A stretch of DNA of 64,000 nucleotides, taken from an uncultured Alphaproteobacteria bacterium. GTDB lineage: Bacteria > Pseudomonadota > Alphaproteobacteria > Paracaedibacterales > CAITNM01. The number at the start of each line of letters is the position of its first letter. Position 1 is the first letter of the stretch. The notes below the pieces were generated by a model. That model did no database searches and was not told the origin of the DNA. It saw only the letters and a program-made list of their open reading frames with translations. The position numbers were made by a program, and so were the translations under genes. This document shows, in pieces, positions 29,309 through 63,931 of the stretch. The stretch is from assembly GCA_903893805.1 (NCBI GenBank), contig CAITNM010000026.1, positions 69,664 to 133,663 of the forward strand. Direction: 5' to 3'.

Positions 29309-29429
29309 TGGGCTTTTAAGTATAGTTTCTATTGCATGTTGTAGGATTCACGGGTAGCATAAGTAAAGGATTTCGTCAATATTATTGTTGTTTAAAAGAA
29401 ATTTTTAATATTTTTTTATTGAAATCGCT

Positions 29430-31292
29430 ATGCAGCCCAATACCGAAGAAAAACCACCAGTGGATACTCTAACTTCTTTGGAAGTCGGGGTAAATATCAT
29501 TAAAGATGTGGTAAAAACACTGCCTAATAAACCCGGGGTTTATCGGATGCTTAGTGCTTCTTTGAAAGTGCTATACATTGGTAAGGCCAAAGACTTGAAA
29601 AAGCGGGTGGTTTCTTATTCTCATGTGGACAGGCTTCCTAATCGTCTTAAGCGTATGGTTAGTGAGCTTCGGGCAATAGAAATTGTTACGACCTCAACAG
29701 AAGTAGAAGCGTTACTTTTAGAGAGCAACCTGATTAAAAAGTTGCAGCCTAGGTATAATGTTTTACTAAAAGATGATAAGTCTTTTCCTTATGTATTGTT
29801 AACGGCACACGATTATCCTCGAGTCCTTAAACATCGAGGTCCCAAAACGGAAAAAGGGACGTATTTTGGTCCGTTTGCGAATGCAGCTGCAGTTGAAGAA
29901 ACTATCCTAACAATGCAGAGATTATTTCAAATGAGAAACTGTTCGGATAGCTATTTTGAAAACCGAAATCGCCCGTGTTTACAGTATCACATTAAGCGAT
30001 GTACAGCTCCGTGCGTTGGAAAAATATCTGTTGGCGAGTATAAAGAATCAGTGCAGTCTGCTAAGGCATTTTTAACAGGGAAAAGCGATACAGTTCAACG
30101 GCAGTTAGCTGAAAAAATGCACGAGGCTTCAGAAATATTGGATTTTGAAAGAGCAGCTCAGTATCGTGACAGCATTCGTTTGCTTACACAAATTCAGGCG
30201 CGTCAACGGATTAATGTGGCAGGTGTTGACCATGCAGATGTGTTCGCCCTGGCACAGCTGAGTGGACGCACAGTTGTGCAAGGTTTCTTTTTTCGTCACG
30301 GCCATAATTATGGCACAGAAACTTTTGAGATGGCGCATACAGAAGGAGCAACTCAAGAAGAGCAAATGATTGCTTTTCTTAGTCAGTTTTACGTTGAGCA
30401 CGAGCCGCCTGTGATGATTCTTTGCAACCTTCTTCCAGAAGATGTTGAAGTGCTCAGCATGAGCTTGTATCAGCAATATGGGATAAAAGTAACGATAGAG
30501 TGCCCTCAAAACGGAGTAAAACTAGACTTGGTCGAGCATGCGCTTAAGAATGCAAAAGAACATCTTGAAAGGCGTTACAACAGCGAGCTAACTCACCAGA
30601 AGCAATTTGGGTTTTTTCAAGAATTTCTAAACATTCCAAGCATTGATTCCGTTGAGGTTTATGACAACAGTCATTTGCAAGGATCTTCTGCTTATGGAGT
30701 ATTAATTTGCGCAACTCGAAAAGGCTTTGATAAATCTCGTTATCGTAAATTTTCAATTCGAGAAATGAAGAAAGATTTTGGTGGTGATGATATTGCGATG
30801 ATGCGTGAAGTGATGAGTCGACGGCTAAGCCATAAAGACGAATGGCCACTGCCAGATGTATTGCTTATTGATGGTGGACAAGCGCAGGTCAATGCAGTGG
30901 CTGCAATTCTTGAAGAACATAACATTGAATTGCCAGTTGCTGGGATTGCTAAAGGAGCAGTTCGTAATGCGGGTGATGAAACTTTTTATTTTCCTAATCA
31001 GTCATCTCGAAAATTGCCCAAGGACAGCCCTTTGTTATATTTTTTGCAAGTTATTCGCGATGAATCACATCGATTTGCCATAGGTACCCATCGTGCTGGA
31101 CGACAAAAAATTCTTGTGAAGTCTCAGCTTGATGATATTCCAGGTATTGGCGCTAAGCGTAAGAAAATGCTGCTGCAACATTTTGGATCAGCTGCAGGAG
31201 TCGGACGTGCAAGTGTTGACGACTTGATGAATATATCAGGAATTAATCGCTTGGTAGCAGAGAAAATTTACTATTTTTTTCATCAAAGCTGA
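29430..31292 (+). CDS. uvrC: Excinuclease ABC subunit C
   Basis: N-terminal GIY-YIG (GVYRML...LYIGKAKDLKKRV), UVR domain and C-terminal HhH. Confidence 0.95.
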   Translation: MQPNTEEKPPVDTLTSLEVGVNIIKDVVKTLPNKPGVYRMLSASLKVLYIGKAKDLKKRVVSYSHVDRLPNRLKRMVSELRAIEIVTTSTEVEALLLESNLIKKLQPRYNVLLKDDKSFPYVLLTAHDYPRVLKHRGPKTEKGTYFGPFANAAAVEETILTMQRLFQMRNCSDSYFENRNRPCLQYHIKRCTAPCVGKISVGEYKESVQSAKAFLTGKSDTVQRQLAEKMHEASEILDFERAAQYRDSIRLLTQIQARQRINVAGVDHADVFALAQLSGRTVVQGFFFRHGHNYGTETFEMAHTEGATQEEQMIAFLSQFYVEHEPPVMILCNLLPEDVEVLSMSLYQQYGIKVTIECPQNGVKLDLVEHALKNAKEHLERRYNSELTHQKQFGFFQEFLNIPSIDSVEVYDNSHLQGSSAYGVLICATRKGFDKSRYRKFSIREMKKDFGGDDIAMMREVMSRRLSHKDEWPLPDVLLIDGGQAQVNAVAAILEEHNIELPVAGIAKGAVRNAGDETFYFPNQSSRKLPKDSPLLYFLQVIRDESHRFAIGTHRAGRQKILVKSQLDDIPGIGAKRKKMLLQHFGSAAGVGRASVDDLMNISGINRLVAEKIYYFFHQS

Positions 31293-31532
31293 AGACTGAT
31301 TAAATCACTGAACGTAATAATATTACTTTATTTTCATATTATTTATAAAATTAATGCAATATTAAAGTTTTTTGCACCAAAATAAAGATGTAAAAAACAT
31401 TTTAAAATAAAGTGACTTTGAAACTTCTCTTTTTTAGAGAGTTCTTAGCAAAGGAAGTAAATTGACTATCAAGTATTGCTAAGTTGTCATCTTCAAAAGT
31501 GTCGTTAGAGCCCCTTTATTTGAGGAGGCCAC

Positions 31533-33083
31533 ATGATTAGCCCAAATCTTAAATTAATTTTTATCTGCACGCTGTTAGCATCATCAAGAGTTATTTCAAT
31601 GGATAGTGGTATAATGCCACCAGATGACTCATCTACTGCAGTACCAAGAAATGGCAGCATTGCATCAGCAACAGATGACCCTTTTGGAAAATTAATGAGA
31701 ACGTTAAATTTTTTGAGCGTGTCCAAGGGAAAGATTGAGCCATGGAAAAATGCTATTTCTGCATATCAGCAATCATTATCTGATAATGCAGAAATATCAA
31801 CATTAGCAAGCATAAGAGAAAGAATTCTAGGAGAACCTTTAGCAAAGCGTAAAATGGCGATGGTTAACAGAGCGTTCAGTAGTTTGACAAATGACTCTAC
31901 TGCTCCGGTGGCTTTTACTCCCAAGCCTTGTGCTCCTATGCAAATTATTGTATTTCAAACTCCCGCAACGAGAGAAAGACCTGCACTCAGTAGTGAAACA
32001 CGAAAACGTGTTACAGCAAAACCTCCTATACTTTCAAGTGTAATGGAGGGAAGAGATTCCCTTGTTGGTAAAGAAGCTATTCCTGCACAGGCCATTAAGG
32101 CGCATATGATGAATTTTATTGCTGGGCAAGATACTGCTCTTGAAGCGCTTAGCTTTTTAGCACATCGCTTTTTGTGTAATAAATTATTGCTTGATAGGGA
32201 CGGTATGCCTGCTAGTAAACCATCACACTGCATATTAACGGGTCCAACAGGATGTGGAAAAAGTGAGAGTCTTAAGCAATTGGGGCTATTTTTAGGTGTG
32301 CCTATCCTGAATATTAATGCACGAAGCCTAACTGATGAAGGATTTAAAGGGCAAAATTTCAGCGAATGTGTTTCTAGTTTTTGTGAAGAAAACGGAAATC
32401 CAAAATCGGCCATTATTGCAATCGATGAAATTGATAAGCTTGCAGCACGAGGAGATGATGAAGCACGAAATTTTGGTAGAGCAGTTCAACGTGTTCTGTT
32501 ATCGCCTTTAGACGGTAATTCTATTTCATTAAAAAGAAAACGATTTGATCTTACAAATTGGTGGTTTATTGGAACGGGTGCTTTTTCTGATTTGAAAGGT
32601 CGACATGACGTAGAAGGGGAGCGCACATCAACGGCTAGAACTCAACAAGATATTATTAGTGCTGGTTTTGAACCTGAATTCGTTGGTCGTTTTCCTTCAG
32701 TTATTGCCTTCAAAGGTCACACAATTGCGACAATGATGGACGTCATTGAGCGTGATGGATCTCCCTTAAGGAAAATACAAAATGAATTTAAGCGTTTTTA
32801 TGGGGTAAATCTTACTGTTGAAGCGGCAGCCTTACGACGTCTAGCGTCCACAAGCATCGAAATAAATCTTGGAGTAAGAAGCTTAGACACAATTCTAAAC
32901 ATGGCATTGCAACCTTTTTATGGACAAGCAATGGAGCTAATAGCAGTAGAGGGCGAGACATCATTAGTTGCAACTTTAAAGGATATTATGCCTGCTATTG
33001 AGCAATTTAAGAAAGATAATAAAGAAGCTCCTAAAGATCGTTTTGCAGGAATGTCAGAAGAGGTAAGAAGAATGTGGATCTAG
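31533..33083 (+). CDS. Orphan ClpX-like AAA+ ATPase with a novel ~210-aa N-terminal region; no zinc-binding domain, no IGF loop
   Basis: SD GAGGAGG. GPTGCGKS, pore-loop position EGFKGQN (ClpX has AGYVGED), IIAIDEIDKL, FIGTGAF and PEFVGRFP. Hydrophobic N-terminus LKLIFICTLLASS. Confidence 0.75.
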   Translation: MISPNLKLIFICTLLASSRVISMDSGIMPPDDSSTAVPRNGSIASATDDPFGKLMRTLNFLSVSKGKIEPWKNAISAYQQSLSDNAEISTLASIRERILGEPLAKRKMAMVNRAFSSLTNDSTAPVAFTPKPCAPMQIIVFQTPATRERPALSSETRKRVTAKPPILSSVMEGRDSLVGKEAIPAQAIKAHMMNFIAGQDTALEALSFLAHRFLCNKLLLDRDGMPASKPSHCILTGPTGCGKSESLKQLGLFLGVPILNINARSLTDEGFKGQNFSECVSSFCEENGNPKSAIIAIDEIDKLAARGDDEARNFGRAVQRVLLSPLDGNSISLKRKRFDLTNWWFIGTGAFSDLKGRHDVEGERTSTARTQQDIISAGFEPEFVGRFPSVIAFKGHTIATMMDVIERDGSPLRKIQNEFKRFYGVNLTVEAAALRRLASTSIEINLGVRSLDTILNMALQPFYGQAMELIAVEGETSLVATLKDIMPAIEQFKKDNKEAPKDRFAGMSEEVRRMWI

Positions 33084-33095
33084 AAAAAACTATAC

Positions 33096-33869
33096 TTACT
33101 TGGCGCTTATTTTTATAAGCGCCATTGTAATTGCAGACACACAAACAATTGCGGGACCTGTAGGCAAATCAAAATAGAGACTTGCGCCAATACCGATTAA
33201 ACTTGAAAAGCAGCTAATCAGTATGGCTGATGTAATCATTTCAGATGGCGTTTTTGAGCGATATCTAGCAGCAGCTGCTGGAATAATTGTAAGTGCTGGC
33301 GCAAATAATGCCCCTAACATTTTCATGACAATTCCCATAATTATTGCATACGAAACAAGCACCATTAGACGTATTATTTTTGATGGAAATCCTTGAACTT
33401 TTGCAAGATCAGCATCAAAGCTTGTCATTAAAATTGCTGACCAATATTTAGCAACAAACCCCCATAAAGCGAGAAGTGCTGCAACAAGAAGAACAATATC
33501 AGACAAGCTGGTACTAAGTAAATCACCAAACAGCAATGTATTTGGGTCAAGGTTTGCTCTTGGAAACAGTGAAATAATTAATATGCTGAAAGAAAGGCAA
33601 CTGTACGAAATAACAGCCAATGATACATCACTTTGTTTTGATGATTTGTGTGCAACAAAATATGCAATGCATAAACATACTAAAATGGCACCAAGGGCAT
33701 ATGGTACTTGTAAAAGTATGCTGAAGCACACACCCAGTAGTGAAGCGTGGGCCAACGTATCTCCAAAGAAAGCAAGTCCATTCCAAAGACCTATGCAGCC
33801 CAAAGGTGCAGTAATTAAACTGGCTAAAAGCGCAGAAACAATTATGAAAATTACGAATGAATCAATCAT
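33096..33869 (-). CDS. znuB: Zinc/manganese ABC transporter permease (ABC-3 family, ZnuB-like)
   Basis: FFGDTLAHASLLGV motif, multi-TM. Start taken at MIDSF (33869); the track start at 33905 is also possible. Confidence 0.8.
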   Translation of the reverse strand: MIDSFVIFIIVSALLASLITAPLGCIGLWNGLAFFGDTLAHASLLGVCFSILLQVPYALGAILVCLCIAYFVAHKSSKQSDVSLAVISYSCLSFSILIISLFPRANLDPNTLLFGDLLSTSLSDIVLLVAALLALWGFVAKYWSAILMTSFDADLAKVQGFPSKIIRLMVLVSYAIIMGIVMKMLGALFAPALTIIPAAAARYRSKTPSEMITSAILISCFSSLIGIGASLYFDLPTGPAIVCVSAITMALIKISAK

Positions 33870-34551
33870 AATGGTGATGATCGTGACGATGTTGATACGG
33901 AGCAAAACCAGGGAATAGTTTTTGCACTTCTTGGACCTGACGTACTTTTTCAGGTGTTCCTTGGCAGCAAACGTGATGATTCAAACAAATCACATGATCT
34001 GTGCAATCAAACACAAAATGCAAATCATGAGAAATAAGCACAATAGCCATATTGTATTCATTTTTCAGTTCTATCAGCTTGCTGTAAAATGCAGACTGCC
34101 CATCGGCATCAATTCCTTGCGTGGGCTCGTCTAAAATTAGGACATCTGGTCTTTTCAAAACAGCGGCATTAAAAAGAACCTTTTGCAATTCCCCGCCCGA
34201 TAAAGCATGAATTGATCTATTCATTAAAAGAGAAATATCAAATGGGTATTCAATTTTTTGTTGCCCGCATAGACTTAGAAATGTCCGCACCGTCATTGGC
34301 ATAAACCGATTCGCATGAAGCTTTTGTGGAACATATCCCATTTGTATATTTTTTTTTCGGTTAATAGAACCAGCAGTGGGTTCAATTAGTCCCAAAATCA
34401 GTCGCACCAGAGTGGTTTTGCCAGCGCCGTTTGGGCCAATTATTGTTGTGACGCTATTTGGCGAAATGCCAAAATTGATATCATGCAATAAAGTTTTGCT
34501 TTGTGATTCTTGTTTAAGAGTATATTCAACGGACTTTAATGAAATTAACAT
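33862..34551 (-). CDS. znuC: Zinc ABC transporter ATP-binding protein ZnuC-like
   Basis: GPNGAGKTT, LSGGELQ, ILDEPTQGID and His-rich tail HRHDHHHYD. Start taken at MLISLK, which forms a TAATG overlap with the mraY stop; the track start is 34608. Confidence 0.8.
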   Translation of the reverse strand: MLISLKSVEYTLKQESQSKTLLHDINFGISPNSVTTIIGPNGAGKTTLVRLILGLIEPTAGSINRKKNIQMGYVPQKLHANRFMPMTVRTFLSLCGQQKIEYPFDISLLMNRSIHALSGGELQKVLFNAAVLKRPDVLILDEPTQGIDADGQSAFYSKLIELKNEYNMAIVLISHDLHFVFDCTDHVICLNHHVCCQGTPEKVRQVQEVQKLFPGFAPYQHRHDHHHYD

Positions 34552-35639
34552 TAGCGAATTTTCAATGTTGCAAGACCAACTAAGGCGAGAATAGATGCAA
34601 TAATCCAAAAACGTATAACGACGGTAGATTCAGCCCATCCCAATTTTTCAAAATGATGATGAATAGGAGCCATTAGAAAAATACGTTTTTTTGTAAGTTT
34701 GTAGTATACAACTTGCAAAATGACAGACACAGCTTCTAACACAAACAAACCACCAATAATACACAATACAAATTCATGTTTTGTGATCAACGCAATGGTG
34801 CCTAATGCGCCTCCAGCAGCAAGTGATCCCGTATCTCCCATAAATACTTTTGCAGGAGGCGCGTTAAACCATAAAAAGCCCAATCCTGCACCAATAAGAC
34901 TGCCTAAAAAGATGCATACTTCTCCGACATTTGCCACATAATGTAGTTGTAGATAAGGCGCAAAAATGTGGTTGCCCACAAGGTAAGCAATAATTGTAAA
35001 ACACACAGAACATATCATCACCGGGACAATCGCTAGCCCATCAAGCCCATCGGTTAAGTTAACAGCATTTGATGATCCTACAATCACAAGCACAGCCCAC
35101 GGATAAAAAAACCAACTTAAGTTAACAATGAAATCTTTGAAAAAAGGAAATGTTAAGCTATGCGAAAGGCTTGCATCTGTATAATGAGCTGATGCATATG
35201 CAACAATTATTGCGAGTGTGGTCTGTCCAAGCAATTTTGTTTTTCCCGAAATTCCATGATGGGAATTTTTAGTGAGTTTTTTGTAATCATCCATGGCACC
35301 TAGAGCTCCAAATCCAAGAGTAACAAGTAGCACTATCCATAAAAATGCATTTGCCAAATCTCCCCATACCAAAGTACTTATAGAAACAGCGAGTAAAATC
35401 AAACACCCTCCCATAGTAGGGGTTCCTTTTTTTGTCACAAGATGAGATTCAGGACCATCGCTACGAATAGGCTGGCCTTGTTTTTGCTTTGACTTAAGCC
35501 AGGCAATAATAGGTTTCCCCAAACAAAAGCTAATTATTAAAGCGGTTAAAATGGCTCCCATAGTGCGAAAAGTAATATATCGCAGAAGGTTGAAAACCTT
35601 AAAATCACCAAAAATATGAAGACAGAAAAATTGTAACAT
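34551..35639 (-). CDS. mraY: Phospho-N-acetylmuramoyl-pentapeptide transferase
   Basis: [18 protein letters not shown] and [12 protein letters not shown]-like motifs; 10-TM profile. Confidence 0.95.
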
Positions 35640-35643
35640 TGCG

Positions 35644-36579
35644 CTAACTATGTCGGTTGGTTGTTATTGAGTGATTGAAAGAAAGGCTTTTATACTCTTT
35701 GGACAGAAAACCGCGTTGCCATTCAATTCCAGAAATTCGGTCTGCAGGCATCTGTGAGTTTTTACCATGCACAATAGTTGCTTCGTTAGGAAAAAATGTT
35801 AATACAAAGTTCGCATACATTTCATATTCTGAAAAGACCTGACTAGAAATTTCAGGGGTATTTAAAACATCCTGCCATGGTTTGTCATGCAATTTTTCTA
35901 GCCTATTTTTCATGGCTTTGAGCTTTGATTTGTCAAAAAACATATGCTGACTATTGAAATCAAGATTGTAATATTTTTCAAGTTTTAATACTGATTCGAC
36001 CATAAGCTTGCAGTCTAACACATACTTATTACAGACATTGAAAACAGCTTTATCTTCCCGAAGAAATATTTGAGTTTGCAACAAAACTGTATCGGCATCA
36101 ATCACTAGGTAATAATCTGAGGTAATGACGGTATCTGCGTTCAGCTTAATGAGCTGTTGTTTTAAATATCCTGACAAATCGTTGCTTCGAGCAAGTTGGG
36201 GAATAACTTTTGTTTCTTCCACAAACTCGCAGCCTTTTTCTAAGGCTACATTCCTTAACTTTTCAGACTCTGGGCAAATTAAATAAATTTTATTGATAGG
36301 GTGCATTATCAACCCTTTCGCAGCATCAATTGCATGACGAATTGTTGGTAAATCTTTTTCAATGCACAAAAAAACAACGTCAATTTTAGTCTGACATAAC
36401 GGAACATGGTTGTTAGAATAGCGGTCTCTTTTAAAAGACAAAAGCTTCATGAAAAGCTTTCTTTTGTAAATATGCCACTTTGTATCTTCAATCGGTAACT
36501 CTTCAGGTGTTGTTATAAGCCAAACACTTAAAATTGTTATGGAAATCAGCAGTGATAGTAAAGCCAAAAAGCGCTTCAT
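35644..36579 (-). CDS. Membrane-anchored GT-A-like putative glycosyltransferase (DUF6492-like), paralog B
   Basis: N-terminal TM segment; [11 protein letters not shown]...; [14 protein letters not shown]...[10 protein letters not shown] (DxD). Full-length paralog of 36583..37524. Confidence 0.5.
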
Positions 36580-36582
36580 ATA

Positions 36583-37524
36583 TTATTGCCCTGTCATGCC
36601 TTCAATTGTTAAAAAGCTATGCATCGTCATGCTTTTGTATTTGCAGCTTAAATATTCTCGTGCATAACTAATGCTGGAAAGTCCATTGCGTGGAAAAAGC
36701 ACGTTACTTCCTAAAACAAGCTCAATTTCATTTTCAAAGCATTGCGCCACAAAGTTGCCATACAGTTCATATTCGGAAAAGCCACCCTCAGGAATGTTCA
36801 AGGTATCAAGTGCATCTTGCCATGGAAGTCCATGCAGATTTTGCAAATGTTGTTTTAAAGCTTTTAATTTTGTTTTGCAAATCAGCATATGGTGGCTAGT
36901 GAAATCAACATTATGAAATTTATCAAACCCCAAGGCAATTTTCACCATTTGTTTTCGATCAAGCCAATAATCATGCAAAATATTCAGAACTTCTTTATTT
37001 TCTGTTACAAAAATCTGAGGGCGAATCAAAATTGTGTCTGCGTCAATAATAAGGAAATGTTCGCATGTCCCAACTTTATCAGCATTAAGCTTTAAATATT
37101 GCTGTTTAATCCATCCCTTTCGATTGGTATTATTCGAAAATGTAGGCAGTACCGTATCTTCTAAAACAAATACACAATTCTTTTCTTGAGCAATTTTGCG
37201 CAATATTATAGATTCTGGTGCGATCAGATAAATATTGGAAATAGGCTGCAAAATATTGCCACGCACCGAATCAATAGTTAGTACTAAAGTTTCAGCATCT
37301 TTTTCAATAACAGGAATGACCACGTCAATTGGCATCTTGCTTAAGGGGACATGCAAGTTACAAAAAGGGTCACGTTTTATTTTTAAATATGCGTAATGAA
37401 TGTAGCGTAAAAATTGTTGATATTTTGAGTCTTGTTTAGGTAAATAAGTAGGATGACACGCGTAATACACAAAGCACATTGCGCAAATTAGGATTGCAAA
37501 AGCACATTGAGTAATTCTTTTCAT
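36583..37524 (-). CDS. Membrane-anchored GT-A-like putative glycosyltransferase (DUF6492-like), paralog A
   Basis: N-terminal TM segment; IDVVIPVIEKD...; KGWIKQQYLKLNAD...HFLIIDADTI (DxD). Confidence 0.5.
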   Translation of the reverse strand: MKRITQCAFAILICAMCFVYYACHPTYLPKQDSKYQQFLRYIHYAYLKIKRDPFCNLHVPLSKMPIDVVIPVIEKDAETLVLTIDSVRGNILQPISNIYLIAPESIILRKIAQEKNCVFVLEDTVLPTFSNNTNRKGWIKQQYLKLNADKVGTCEHFLIIDADTILIRPQIFVTENKEVLNILHDYWLDRKQMVKIALGFDKFHNVDFTSHHMLICKTKLKALKQHLQNLHGLPWQDALDTLNIPEGGFSEYELYGNFVAQCFENEIELVLGSNVLFPRNGLSSISYAREYLSCKYKSMTMHSFLTIEGMTGQ

Positions 37525-59374: not shown

Positions 59375-60907
59375 ATGAGTAAGACAGACAATTCAACGCC
59401 AGAGTTTACGGGCTTACGTGCTCGACTTTGGCCAATTCACGCACATGAGCTAAAAAAGTTTATCCCTCTAGGCATTATTATGTTTTGCCTATTGTTTAAC
59501 TACACTATTCTTCGTGATACGAAGGATTCTTTAGTAGTTAACTCAGCGGGCGCGGGAGCCATTACGTTTTTGAAGCTATACTGCGTTACACCGGCAGCGA
59601 TATTATTCGTTGTTTTGTACGCAAAGCTGACAAACGCTATGTCACGTGAAAATGTATTCTACGCTGTAGTTGCGCCATTCATAATATTTTTTGGTATTTT
59701 TGGATTCGTAATTTACCCAAATCTTCACATGCTTCATCCTTCAGTTGAATCAATTCAAGCGCTACATGCTGCTTATCCTAATTTAAGTGGATTCATTGAT
59801 TTGTACGCATACTGGGCATTTTCTTTGTTCTATGTTCTTTCTGAAATTTGGGGAAGTGCAATGATTGCGTTAATGTTCTGGCAATTTGCTAACCATGTTG
59901 TGCGCTTGCGTGAATCAAAGCGTTTCTACGGGTTATTTGCTGTTATTGGAAATGCAGCGTTAGTAGTTTCTGGACCTACAGTTATGTACTGTTCTGAGCA
60001 TATTAAGCACATGGTCCCAGAAGGCGTGGATCCTTGGCAAATAACATTATACCTTCTTATGTCTGCAGTTGTAGTCATGGGCTTGGTTGCTATGTATACA
60101 TACCGTTGGATGCACAAAGAAGTGTTAACTAACAAGTTGTATTTCAACCCAGAAGAAGAAGGCGCGCCAAAGAAGAAGAAAAAAGAAAAGCCAGGTCTTA
60201 TGGAGAGCTTTAAAATTATTGTTCAGTCACCTGAGCTTGGTTTGATTGCCCTTTTGATTATGGCTTACGGCGTAACTATTAACTTGGTTGAAGTTCAATG
60301 GAAAAACCAATTAGGTTTATTTTGTTCTGGAAATAAAGGACTTTTCAACTATTACATGGGCATTTTGTCTACTGCTACTGGTATTTTCACAATTCTATTT
60401 GGACTCTTTGTTGGCTCAAATATTTTGAGAAAAGTAAGCTGGGCAAAAGCTGCGATGATTACTCCTTTGGTAATTTTGGTTGGCGGCGGAGCATTCTTCT
60501 GCTTCATCCTAGCTGAAGGTATGATGGAACCATTTTTGCAGTTCTTTAATACTCATGCGATTGCTGCTGCAATGTTTATTGGTTTAGGTATCGTTGTTGT
60601 GTCAAAGGCTATTAAATACATTTTGTTCGATCCCACAAAGGAAATGGCTTACATTCCATTGGATGATGAGCTAAAGACAAAAGGTAAGGCTGCTGTTGAC
60701 GTTATTGGTGGTCGTGCTGGTAAAGCCGGCGGTGCTTTTGTGCAAAACATGTTATTAATTGCTTTTGCAACTAAAGACGTTGTTTCAATTGCACCAATTG
60801 CATTTGCAGTGTTTGCTGTAGTTGCAGTGGCTTGGTTATATGCTGTTAAAGCACTTTCAGTGAAAGTGACCGCGGCAACTGCCAAGAAAAAACTAGAACA
60901 AGCATAA
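59375..60907 (+). CDS. tlc: ATP/ADP translocase (Tlc/Npt family nucleotide transporter)
   Basis: LWPIHAHELKKFIPLGIIMFCLLFNYTILRDTKDSLVV is the hallmark N-terminus. About 12 TM segments, 510 aa, SD AAGAGGA. Confidence 0.95.
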   Translation: MSKTDNSTPEFTGLRARLWPIHAHELKKFIPLGIIMFCLLFNYTILRDTKDSLVVNSAGAGAITFLKLYCVTPAAILFVVLYAKLTNAMSRENVFYAVVAPFIIFFGIFGFVIYPNLHMLHPSVESIQALHAAYPNLSGFIDLYAYWAFSLFYVLSEIWGSAMIALMFWQFANHVVRLRESKRFYGLFAVIGNAALVVSGPTVMYCSEHIKHMVPEGVDPWQITLYLLMSAVVVMGLVAMYTYRWMHKEVLTNKLYFNPEEEGAPKKKKKEKPGLMESFKIIVQSPELGLIALLIMAYGVTINLVEVQWKNQLGLFCSGNKGLFNYYMGILSTATGIFTILFGLFVGSNILRKVSWAKAAMITPLVILVGGGAFFCFILAEGMMEPFLQFFNTHAIAAAMFIGLGIVVVSKAIKYILFDPTKEMAYIPLDDELKTKGKAAVDVIGGRAGKAGGAFVQNMLLIAFATKDVVSIAPIAFAVFAVVAVAWLYAVKALSVKVTAATAKKKLEQA

Positions 60908-60946: not shown

Positions 60947-60973
60947 GGGGTGCCTAAAGCACCCCTTTTTTTT
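60947..60973 (+). terminator. Rho-independent terminator of tlc
   Basis: GGGGTGC-CTAAA-GCACCCC followed by T8. Confidence 0.85.
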
Positions 60974-63931
60974 ATGAAATTAGATTACGAAAATTTATAT
61001 TCCCAACATGGGTTAAACGAATTGCATGAATGCTTTTTACAGTTTGTAAAAGCAAAGAATTCTAATTTTGACTTTTCACTAATTGAAACTGCTGAATATT
61101 TAGAAGAATTTTTATGTGAACAGTTTGATTTAGAGCAAGCTTTGCTCGCTGTATATAAGAATGTTTCTGCACATGGACTGATTGCCTATGCTAAAAGGCA
61201 ATTTATTCAGCGTCATGCTTTGAAAGCGTTTCCTAATCCACAAGATGATTGGCAGCATCTTTACACATTTACCGATGTGGTGATGTTTGCTAAAGCTGCG
61301 TGTGATGCGCTGGGAAACTCAAAATCTAATTTAGATGATTTATCAAAATATGCTGCGTGGGCTGTGCTTACACTACAGGGAAAGCAAAAGCATAAAGATG
61401 ATTCGTTGTTTCATGTTTCTGAAAAAATTGACCCTAATTTTGCTTTGCGAAATGTCAGCGAAGTAGATGGCGCATATGTGACAACAACACCTAGAAAACG
61501 CGAAGGCTTTGGTTTAACTGATGCTGGTTTTTCAAATTCTCAATCTGCAAGTGAAGCACATTACTGTATCTTGTGTCACAACCAAGGTAAGGATAGTTGC
61601 CGTACAGGGTTAGCGCAAAATCCCAAAAAATCTGGTTGTCCATTAGGCCTAAAAATTTCACAAATGCACGCTCTAAAGCGCAGTGAATTAAACATTGCAG
61701 CGCTTGCAGTGATTATGATCGATAACCCTATGGTTGCAGCTACAGGTCACCGTATTTGTAATGATTGTATGAAATCATGCATTTTTCAAAAACAAACCCC
61801 GGTGAATACGCCAGGAGTTGAAACCAATATTTTAAATGCAGTGCTCAGTTTGCCTTATGGGTTTGAAATTTATAGTTTGCTCACTCGGTGGAACCCTTTG
61901 AATTTTGAGCAGCCATTGCCTGCTGCAGAAACGGGTTATCAAATATTGGTTGCGGGGCTTGGGCCTGCAGGTTTTAGTTTGTCCCATTACCTAGAGCGTG
62001 ATGGCCATAAGGTCGTTGGAATTGATGGGGCAAAGCTTGAACCATTGCCAGCTCTGCTTTTAGAAAAAACTCTAATTAAAGATAGCAATATTCTTTTTGA
62101 AAAACTTGATGAGCGTATTTTAAGTGGGTTTGGTGGAGTTGCCGAATACGGCATTACGGTGCGTTGGAATAAAAATTATTTGAAAATATTAAGGTTGTTA
62201 TTAGAGCGCAGAAGCAATATTAAATTTTTTGGATCAACCCGTTATGGTGGCCAGATAAATGAAAGTAATTATAAAGCATTGGGGTTTGATGCTGTTGCTT
62301 TGTGCACAGGGGCAGGGGCTCCTAAGTTACCAAATATTCCAGGTGTTCTAACACCTGGAGTACGTTTAGCTAGTGATTTTTTAATGGCGTTGCAATTAAC
62401 GGGAGCCGCAAAAAAAGATTCTTTAGCGAACTTGCAAATATTAGGACCAATTTTAGTGATTGGCGGCGGCTTAACCGCAATTGATACAGCTACAGAAGCC
62501 AAAGCGTACTACACGGTTCAAGCGAAAAAATTTAAGCAGCGCTACAATCAGTTGTTAAAAATTTATGGAGAGACAGAGCTTAAAAAATGGTGGACAACTC
62601 AAGATCATGTTGATGCTGAGCAGCTGTTGAACTTTGAAACTGCAGATGTGCGGATTATTTATAGGGCAGATATAACCAATGCGCCAAGTTATGCATTGAA
62701 TCATGAAGAAATTGAAAAAGCCTTAGAAGAAGGAATTATTTTTGAGCCTAACTTGGTGCCATTGCGCATTGAAAAAGATGATGCAGGGCAGGTTAAAGGT
62801 TTATGGGGAAAACATGGAGACATTGAAGAGTTTTTACCGGCGCGATGCATTATTATGGCAGTTGGCACTCATCATGAACCCTTAAGTGAAAACCATGCCA
62901 GCTTTGGTGATGCAAATCCAACTTACGCGGGCAGTGTGGTCAAAGCTATCGCTAGTGCCAAAAATGGTTATAAAGCGATTAGCCAGGACTTAAAATCTAA
63001 GTCTCCTTTGCCTAAGGTTGAGCTGTCAGAGTTGCTGACTGCAAAAGTAGTGGCTGTTTCCAGACTTGCTAAAAACCTTGTTCAAATTGAAATCATGGCG
63101 CCTCTTGCAGCTGCAGCATTTCAGCCTGGCCAATTTTATCGTCTTCAAAATTTTGAATCCCTTGCACCTATTGTGAATGACACTCGCTTGGCTATGGAAG
63201 CTTTGGCGCTTACTCCGGTTAAGGTTGATAAAGTAAGCGGAATCATTACATTTGTAATTGTGGAAATAGGGTGCTCATCATTATTAGCGCAACACCTGAA
63301 ACCTGGTGAGCTGATCAGCTTAATGGGCCCTACGGGAACACCCACTGAATTACCGATTAACAAGAACATTTTGCTTGTTGGTGGCGGACATTTTAATTTA
63401 GCTCTTATACACTTGGCTCAAGCTTTAAAAGAAAAGGGCAACACAGTGCATTGGGTGGCAGGGTACCGTTCAAGTGCTGATAGAACGCATGTAGAAGACA
63501 TTGAAAATGCTGCACATAGAATGTGGTGGTATTACGCAGAAGCAGCGTATGGTGAACAGCAGGGCAATGTTATAGATGGGTTGCACTACTTAAAAAATCA
63601 AAATATATTGCCGTCTATTGATTGGCTGTTTGTTATGGGTTCAACGCTTATGCAAGAAGCAATTGCCAAGGAACTCATTCAGCTTAAAAATTCATTGAAT
63701 CCAGCAGTTAAAACAATTGCGAATATCAATATTCCAATGCAGTGTATGATGCAAGGTATATGTGGTCAGTGTCTTATTGTTAGTGAAAATGGCACTCAGT
63801 TTTGTTGTAAAAATCAGGAAATTAGCATTCAAGAAATGCCATTTGATACGCTGCAAAACCGCAGCAAACAAAATAGCTTATTGGAAAAAATATCACGACT
63901 TTGGCTCAGCCATATAACTGAAATTAACTAG
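60974..63931 (+). CDS. Large multidomain flavo-iron-sulfur oxidoreductase (GltD-like NAD(P)/FAD domain fused to a PyrK/FNR-like domain with a C-terminal Cys cluster)
   Basis: Cys clusters CILCHNQGKDSC and CNDCMKSC; Rossmann ILVAGLGPAGFS and VIGGGLTAIDTA; FNR-like QPGQFYRL...LMGPTGTP; CMMQGICGQCL. Start moved to ATG 60974 because the 60950 GTG lies inside the tlc terminator. Confidence 0.7.
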   Translation: MKLDYENLYSQHGLNELHECFLQFVKAKNSNFDFSLIETAEYLEEFLCEQFDLEQALLAVYKNVSAHGLIAYAKRQFIQRHALKAFPNPQDDWQHLYTFTDVVMFAKAACDALGNSKSNLDDLSKYAAWAVLTLQGKQKHKDDSLFHVSEKIDPNFALRNVSEVDGAYVTTTPRKREGFGLTDAGFSNSQSASEAHYCILCHNQGKDSCRTGLAQNPKKSGCPLGLKISQMHALKRSELNIAALAVIMIDNPMVAATGHRICNDCMKSCIFQKQTPVNTPGVETNILNAVLSLPYGFEIYSLLTRWNPLNFEQPLPAAETGYQILVAGLGPAGFSLSHYLERDGHKVVGIDGAKLEPLPALLLEKTLIKDSNILFEKLDERILSGFGGVAEYGITVRWNKNYLKILRLLLERRSNIKFFGSTRYGGQINESNYKALGFDAVALCTGAGAPKLPNIPGVLTPGVRLASDFLMALQLTGAAKKDSLANLQILGPILVIGGGLTAIDTATEAKAYYTVQAKKFKQRYNQLLKIYGETELKKWWTTQDHVDAEQLLNFETADVRIIYRADITNAPSYALNHEEIEKALEEGIIFEPNLVPLRIEKDDAGQVKGLWGKHGDIEEFLPARCIIMAVGTHHEPLSENHASFGDANPTYAGSVVKAIASAKNGYKAISQDLKSKSPLPKVELSELLTAKVVAVSRLAKNLVQIEIMAPLAAAAFQPGQFYRLQNFESLAPIVNDTRLAMEALALTPVKVDKVSGIITFVIVEIGCSSLLAQHLKPGELISLMGPTGTPTELPINKNILLVGGGHFNLALIHLAQALKEKGNTVHWVAGYRSSADRTHVEDIENAAHRMWWYYAEAAYGEQQGNVIDGLHYLKNQNILPSIDWLFVMGSTLMQEAIAKELIQLKNSLNPAVKTIANINIPMQCMMQGICGQCLIVSENGTQFCCKNQEISIQEMPFDTLQNRSKQNSLLEKISRLWLSHITEIN

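Follow-up and report, generated by a model that had tools for sequence, protein, structure and literature searches.

A ClpX-like AAA+ ATPase with a putative Sec-type signal peptide and no ClpP-docking loop in Holosporales bacteria

The window analysed here, a stretch of 64,000 nucleotides taken as a whole, belongs to a lake-water metagenome-assembled genome (MAG) of 1.57 Mb in 47 contigs and encodes a ClpX-like AAA+ ATPase, referred to below as P0001, whose features are collected in Table 1. The gene is preceded by uvrC (29430-31292, + strand) and followed by the convergently oriented genes of a ZnuB/ZnuC-like ABC-3 Zn/Mn transporter (33096-34608, - strand). An earlier note on this DNA had drawn attention to a very AT-rich spacer and a strong Shine-Dalgarno sequence ahead of the start codon. 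Both are present (27% GC over the 240 nt of positions 31293-31532, and the motif GAGGAGG), but the spacer itself is typical of the intergenic DNA of this genome, as the intergenic region at 29309-29429 likewise has a GC content of 27%. The order uvrC, ClpX-like gene, znuB-znuC is kept on the ortholog contigs of Candidatus Finniella inopinata, at 92% identity, and the same order was found in an Odyssella-labelled MAG and in other Alphaproteobacteria MAGs (related Holosporales). This core conserved synteny, together with a GC content matching that of the genome, speaks against a mobile-element or phage origin of the gene, which is not supported. The Candidatus Finniella lineage is placed in the Paracaedibacteraceae of the Holosporales, which are obligate symbionts of protists (PMC11909080).

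Several further observations concern the gene and the rest of the window. An antisense open reading frame of 152 aa lies within the ClpX-like gene (31955-32413, - strand) and is 85-92% conserved in the orthologs; most likely, it is a by-product of the constrained coding on the sense strand and no gene. Two adjoining DUF6492 proteins are encoded beside a glycosyltransferase family 4 gene (35644-37524, - strand), and these genes possibly form an envelope glycan cluster. Directly after the gene for an ATP/ADP translocase (NTT) lies another (60950-63931, + strand) whose 993-aa product combines a Pyr_redox_2 with a Fer4_20 domain and is similar to dihydropyrimidine dehydrogenase or to the small subunit of glutamate synthase.

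Table 1. Features of the ClpX-like gene and its product, with two further genes of the same genome; positions are those of the window unless a contig is given.
Feature	Position	Strand	Basis or remark
Shine-Dalgarno sequence GAGGAGG, 4 nt ahead of the start codon	31522..31528	+	sequence
CDS, ClpX-like AAA+ ATPase P0001, 516 aa	31533..33083	+	ORF; orthologs with conserved synteny
Sec-type signal-peptide-like segment, residues 1-25	31533..31607	+	hydrophobicity kept in 40 of 47 family members; low confidence in the AF2 model
Small four-helix N-terminal domain, residues 48-122	31674..31898	+	conserved motifs; AF2 helices
Disordered Pro-rich linker, residues 123-177	31899..32063	+	pLDDT <50 at 121-174; length varies among homologs
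ClpX-like AAA+ large and small domains, residues 178-516	32064..33080	+	Foldseek matches to ClpX hexamers; PRK05342/TIGR00382 sub-threshold
Walker A GPTGCGKS, residues 237-244	32241..32264	+	invariant in the family
Pore-1 loop SLTDEGFKGQNF, G(F/Y)KG instead of ClpX GYVG	32325..32360	+	alignments; also in group B
Walker B IIAIDEID, residues 294-301	32412..32435	+	family alignments
Sensor-1 strand NWWFIGTGAF, residues 342-351	32556..32585	+	alignment; DSSP strand 342-349 in the AF2 model
PEFVGRFP, residues 381-388, arginine finger R386	32673..32696	+	R386 invariant
Sensor-2 GVRSL, residues 447-451, R449	32871..32885	+	nearly invariant
C-terminal tail, ending ...RRMWI in P0001	33018..33080	+	most superfamily members end ...P(P/E)(F/Y)GMY
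Intrinsic-terminator-like 10-bp hairpin, between the ClpX-like gene and convergent znuB	33101..33124	+	
ATP/ADP translocase NTT (TLC)	59375-60907	+	PF03219, E 4.5e-173
Group B paralog, 620 aa, TTG start, same genome	G000:C20, L006:661-2523	+	GFKG pore-1; C-terminal PPFGMYT

Comparison of the P0001 sequence with known unfoldases revealed a ClpX-like ATPase core. All of the ClpX motifs listed in the earlier note were recovered from the reading frame, with SLTDEGFKGQNF aligning with the ClpX segment TLTEAGYVGEDV, and they follow the same order as in ClpX: Walker A, an aromatic pore-1 loop, Walker B, sensor-1, PEF-GR, and sensor-2. In an alignment of 44 family sequences, these ATPase motifs are invariant or nearly so throughout the family. 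Pfam assigns the protein to AAA_2/AAA, and the nearest NCBIfam models are those of ClpX, although their whole-protein scores lie far under the cut-offs (68 bits for TIGR00382 against a curated cut-off of 370.75, and 88 for PRK05342 against 359); sub-threshold NCBIfam matches to HslU, ClpA-D2, and ClpB-D2 were also obtained. The AlphaFold2 (AF2) model of P0001 was built from the 44-sequence family alignment and reached a pLDDT of 75.6. Its top Foldseek matches were all chains of ClpX hexamers (E ~1e-19, TMt 0.72-0.79), these being the proteins of E. coli, Neisseria, and M. tuberculosis and that of human mitochondria. The beginning of the AAA+ domain lies near residue 178, and its alpha0 helix IAGQDTAL (residues 196-203) matches VIGQDHAK of ClpX. 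At the level of the fold, P0001 thus falls within the ClpX/HslU clade, possessing Walker A and B, sensor-1, the arginine finger, and sensor-2 on a ClpX-like fold. HslU, ClpA-D2, and ClpB-D2 share a related AAA+ fold and pore-loop-driven translocation, but P0001 is nearer to ClpX in both alignment and structure, and none of them carries a signal peptide or the N-terminal domain of P0001.

Despite this similarity, P0001 departs from ClpX in the elements through which ClpX meets its partners and substrates. Its N-terminal region holds no CxxC motif, so that the absence of the C4 zinc-binding domain (ZBD) reported in the earlier note was borne out, and for the whole family, as was that of the IGF loop: the segment between sensor-1 and PEFVGR is shorter than in ClpX by ~40 aa in all 44 aligned family members. 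Our alignment further revealed that the RKH loop is absent from every family member, where the corresponding stretch, SLKRKRFDLTN, falls 6 aa short of that in ClpX. At the pore-1 loop, the family carries G(F/Y)KG and not GYVG, in agreement with the note, thereby retaining the aromatic residue while replacing valine by lysine. In the structures of ClpXP, the IGF loops occupy pockets of ClpP, Tyr153 and Val154 of the ClpX pore-1 loop grip the substrate, and ssrA tags are recognised by the RKH loops (PMC7112952). Since the IGF loops are missing, P0001 should be unable to dock ClpP, and the earlier suggestion that docking is unlikely is therefore well in line with the established ClpXP structure (PMC7112952); similarly, the loss of both the RKH loop and the ZBD should leave the ATPase without recognition of ssrA tags or ClpX adaptors.

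A cryptic IGF loop was considered as well and rejected. A local HMMER alignment had placed IGTGAF of P0001 opposite the IGF of ClpX. In the MAFFT family alignment, however, this hexapeptide corresponds to sensor-1, and in the AF2 model it is a buried beta strand and not a loop. These results bear directly on the proposal that P0001 is a second cytoplasmic ClpXP-type protease adaptor that docks ClpP by some other contact, for which one could cite the match of its AAA+ core to ClpX and the ClpP encoded on contig C16 of the same genome. With IGF loops missing family-wide, the only candidate for one buried in the sensor-1 strand, and a putative export signal that speaks against a cytoplasmic site, we consider this proposal highly improbable. 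The genome also encodes a canonical ClpX of 420 aa on contig C40 (659 bits), complete with C4 zinc finger and IGF loop, just as the note had expected of a bona fide clpX elsewhere. The label 'orphan' that the note gave to the gene does not hold, given this genuine ClpX, its ClpP, and the membership of the gene in a conserved syntenic family. The possibility that P0001 is the sole ClpX with a mis-called N-terminus was rejected on the same grounds (canonical ClpX and ClpP encoded elsewhere), and also on account of the strong Shine-Dalgarno sequence and the conservation of the N-terminal segment in homologs.

What P0001 has gained relative to ClpX lies mostly at its N-terminus, where a Sec-type signal-peptide-like segment and a helical domain are added; a C-terminal GMY tail is a further addition of the family. 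The earlier note described about 210 aa of unrelated N-terminal sequence; the region is indeed non-ClpX, but it is shorter (~175 aa) and displays a conserved family architecture of putative signal peptide, four-helix domain, and linker. In the AF2 model, the four helices of the domain (residues 50-60, 69-81, 91-99, and 105-122) were predicted with a pLDDT of ~85, and its conserved motifs are DxPFxKLM, PWKxAI, and TLxxIRxRIL. Foldseek found no structural match to the domain in the PDB or the ESM Atlas (best E 0.54), and searches of Pfam, PADLOC, and the Atlas gave no significant match to the N-terminal domain. The four-helix domain is carried on a flexible linker, as is the ZBD of ClpX, and it may possibly serve as a module for the recognition of substrates or partners in place of the ZBD.

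The note's description of the extreme N-terminus as a hydrophobic signal- or anchor-like segment was upheld, and its anatomy resembles that of a signal peptide. In P0001, an n-region with K7 is followed by the h-region LIFICTLLA and a small c-region, while across the family the N-termini combine an n-region of charge +1/+2 with an 11-residue, uniformly hydrophobic h-region and then small residues and D/E. As judged by composition and alignment, such a signal-peptide-like segment is present in 40 of 47 family members, as compared to none of 128 proteins made up of canonical ClpX and further AAA matches. Over ~45 homologs, the segment is conserved in its hydrophobicity and not in its sequence, and this combination of varying residues with retained hydrophobicity is what one would expect of a signal peptide that functions. 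A clear AXA site is absent from some family members, P0001 included; textbook AXA signal peptides (SIA|AD, ALA|AD, AFA|TE) were found in the group C relatives described below. The short h-region and the N-terminal placement of the positive charges point to a predicted cleaved Sec signal peptide, and because this putative signal peptide is conserved, the ATPase may be exported by Sec.

The membrane-tethered and the secreted roles that the note had put forward both remain as readings, but they are no longer on an equal footing, as the h-region of ~11 aa is too short for a membrane span and tethering is thereby less likely than export. In no 19-residue KD window does the segment rise above 1.8, and its hydrophobic moment is 0.03-0.26 versus 0.33 in the AAA domain; being both too short and not amphipathic, it is less likely to be a membrane anchor. 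The same properties weigh on the idea that P0001 is a stand-alone unfoldase or remodelling chaperone of the cytoplasm, ClpP-independent, with a membrane-bound N-terminus or uncleaved anchor, an AAA+ ring facing the cytoplasm, and an N-terminal helical domain selecting cytoplasmic substrates. Such a protein would find plentiful ATP, the conservation of the hydrophobic segment would be accounted for, and remodelling of complexes is conceivable for an unfoldase that does not dock ClpP, given that ClpX alone remodels MuA complexes. Nevertheless, the low hydrophobic moment disfavours an amphipathic membrane-binding helix just as the short h-region (KD <=1.8) disfavours a transmembrane one, the N-terminal positive residues favour an N-in/C-out orientation that would leave the AAA domain outside the cytoplasm, and the group C relatives carry textbook AXA cleavage sites; overall, we regard a cytoplasmic chaperone as rather unlikely.

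The distribution of P0001 is narrow, its small family having been found only in bacteria that inhabit protists. We identified ~48 close homologs, the full-length family is confined in GTDB to its own genus, and it was not found in 400 other Alphaproteobacteria genomes. Some genomes hold two to three family copies, and tandem triplets occur in G007 and GCA_965184335; in both of these, the triplet lies beside an engA GTPase gene and a gene for a PQQ beta-propeller protein (L026, GCA_965184335, 8001-13224; L020, G007 C40). Measured against two relatives, the dN/dS of the ClpX-like gene is ~0.20-0.25, as compared to 0.02-0.07 for neighbouring housekeeping genes, and the gene is therefore under purifying selection while evolving at the rate of an accessory gene. 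These selection data contradict the reading of P0001 as a decaying, non-functional ClpX paralog, which could otherwise appeal to the deviation of its motifs from canonical ClpX; with all catalytic motifs intact, a constant syntenic position across species, and multi-copy expansions in relatives, decay is improbable in the extreme. In metatranscriptomes, two short contigs of a relative (~90-95% identity) covered the 5' end of the gene, a signal too weak for a claim of expression.

Beyond its own family (group A), P0001 has more distant relatives at ~24-30% identity, which we assigned to groups B and C. The group B gene of the same genome adjoins those for NAD kinase and 6-phosphofructokinase and has orthologs throughout the genus, while group C comprises other Holosporales families (e.g. 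L027, L028, and L029). Group B resembles P0001 in its GFKG pore-1 loop and its signal-peptide N-terminus but differs in the remaining N-terminal region, whereas group C displays the canonical GYVG pore-1 loop and has a more extended insertion ahead of Walker B. The ZBD, the RKH loop, and the IGF loop are lacking in all three groups, and most members end in ...P(P/E)(F/Y)GMY. From their sequences, the P0001 family and groups B and C are a Holosporales-specific superfamily of ClpX-like ATPases with predicted signal peptides. When the AAA core was analysed by maximum likelihood, the canonical ClpX proteins formed a well-supported clade (99/97) apart from all of the signal-peptide groups, with groups A and B as sisters (100/100) and group C separate (87/94). 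This tree, built without an HslU outgroup and hence unrooted, is compatible with a single origin of the superfamily by duplication of ClpX, which is thus possible.

Taken together, the ClpX-like core, the missing docking loop, and the putative signal peptide lead us to favour, tentatively and at somewhat short of an even chance, a ClpP-independent, ClpX-derived hexameric unfoldase that is exported by Sec with a cleavable signal peptide and is active outside the cytoplasm. We infer the export, location, ATP supply, and substrates of the ATPase as follows. Sec would carry it over the inner membrane, where the signal peptide would be cleaved; given the intact motifs and the aromatic pore-1 residue, the protein would bind and hydrolyse ATP and thread polypeptides through its central pore. 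Substrates would probably be chosen via the new N-terminal helical domain, independently of ClpP, ClpX adaptors, and ssrA recognition. The site of action would be the periplasm or cell envelope, or else the host cytosol after further export, and there the ATPase would unfold or remodel proteins.

AAA+ unfoldases are regarded as cytoplasmic (or matrix) machines that use the cell's own ATP, and such motors are normally precluded beyond the inner membrane, where ATP is lacking. The exported unfoldase favoured here might be supplied with ATP from the host, entering the periplasm of these ATP-importing symbionts. The window itself encodes an NTT, which 58 of 61 relatives also carry, and NTT/TLC transporters reside in the inner membrane and take up ATP from the periplasm. 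Host ATP must therefore reach the periplasm, which would make an unfoldase located in the envelope feasible; the presence of ATP in this compartment is thus deduced from NTT biology. As for the outer membrane, no route for a folded hexamer was identified in the genome, which encodes a secretin and TolC with nothing linking either of them to the ClpX-like ATPase. The most novel form of the proposal, in which a Sec-exported unfoldase runs on host ATP in the periplasm, envelope, or host cytosol and its N-terminal domain picks host or envelope proteins with no ClpP involved, is speculative, and we rate it as rather unlikely.

It is surprising to find a putative signal peptide on a motor derived from ClpX, in a family confined to intracellular symbionts that import ATP. 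Its occurrence on an ATPase of such energy parasites suggests either a periplasmic remodelling motor that the ATP of the host drives or an unfoldase secreted to act on the host, and with either role intracellular bacteria would have a novel means of manipulating proteins. If true, this would place an AAA+ unfoldase in a compartment from which no such machine is known, and it would show that a lineage can co-opt a housekeeping protease subunit, freed from ClpP, for symbiosis.
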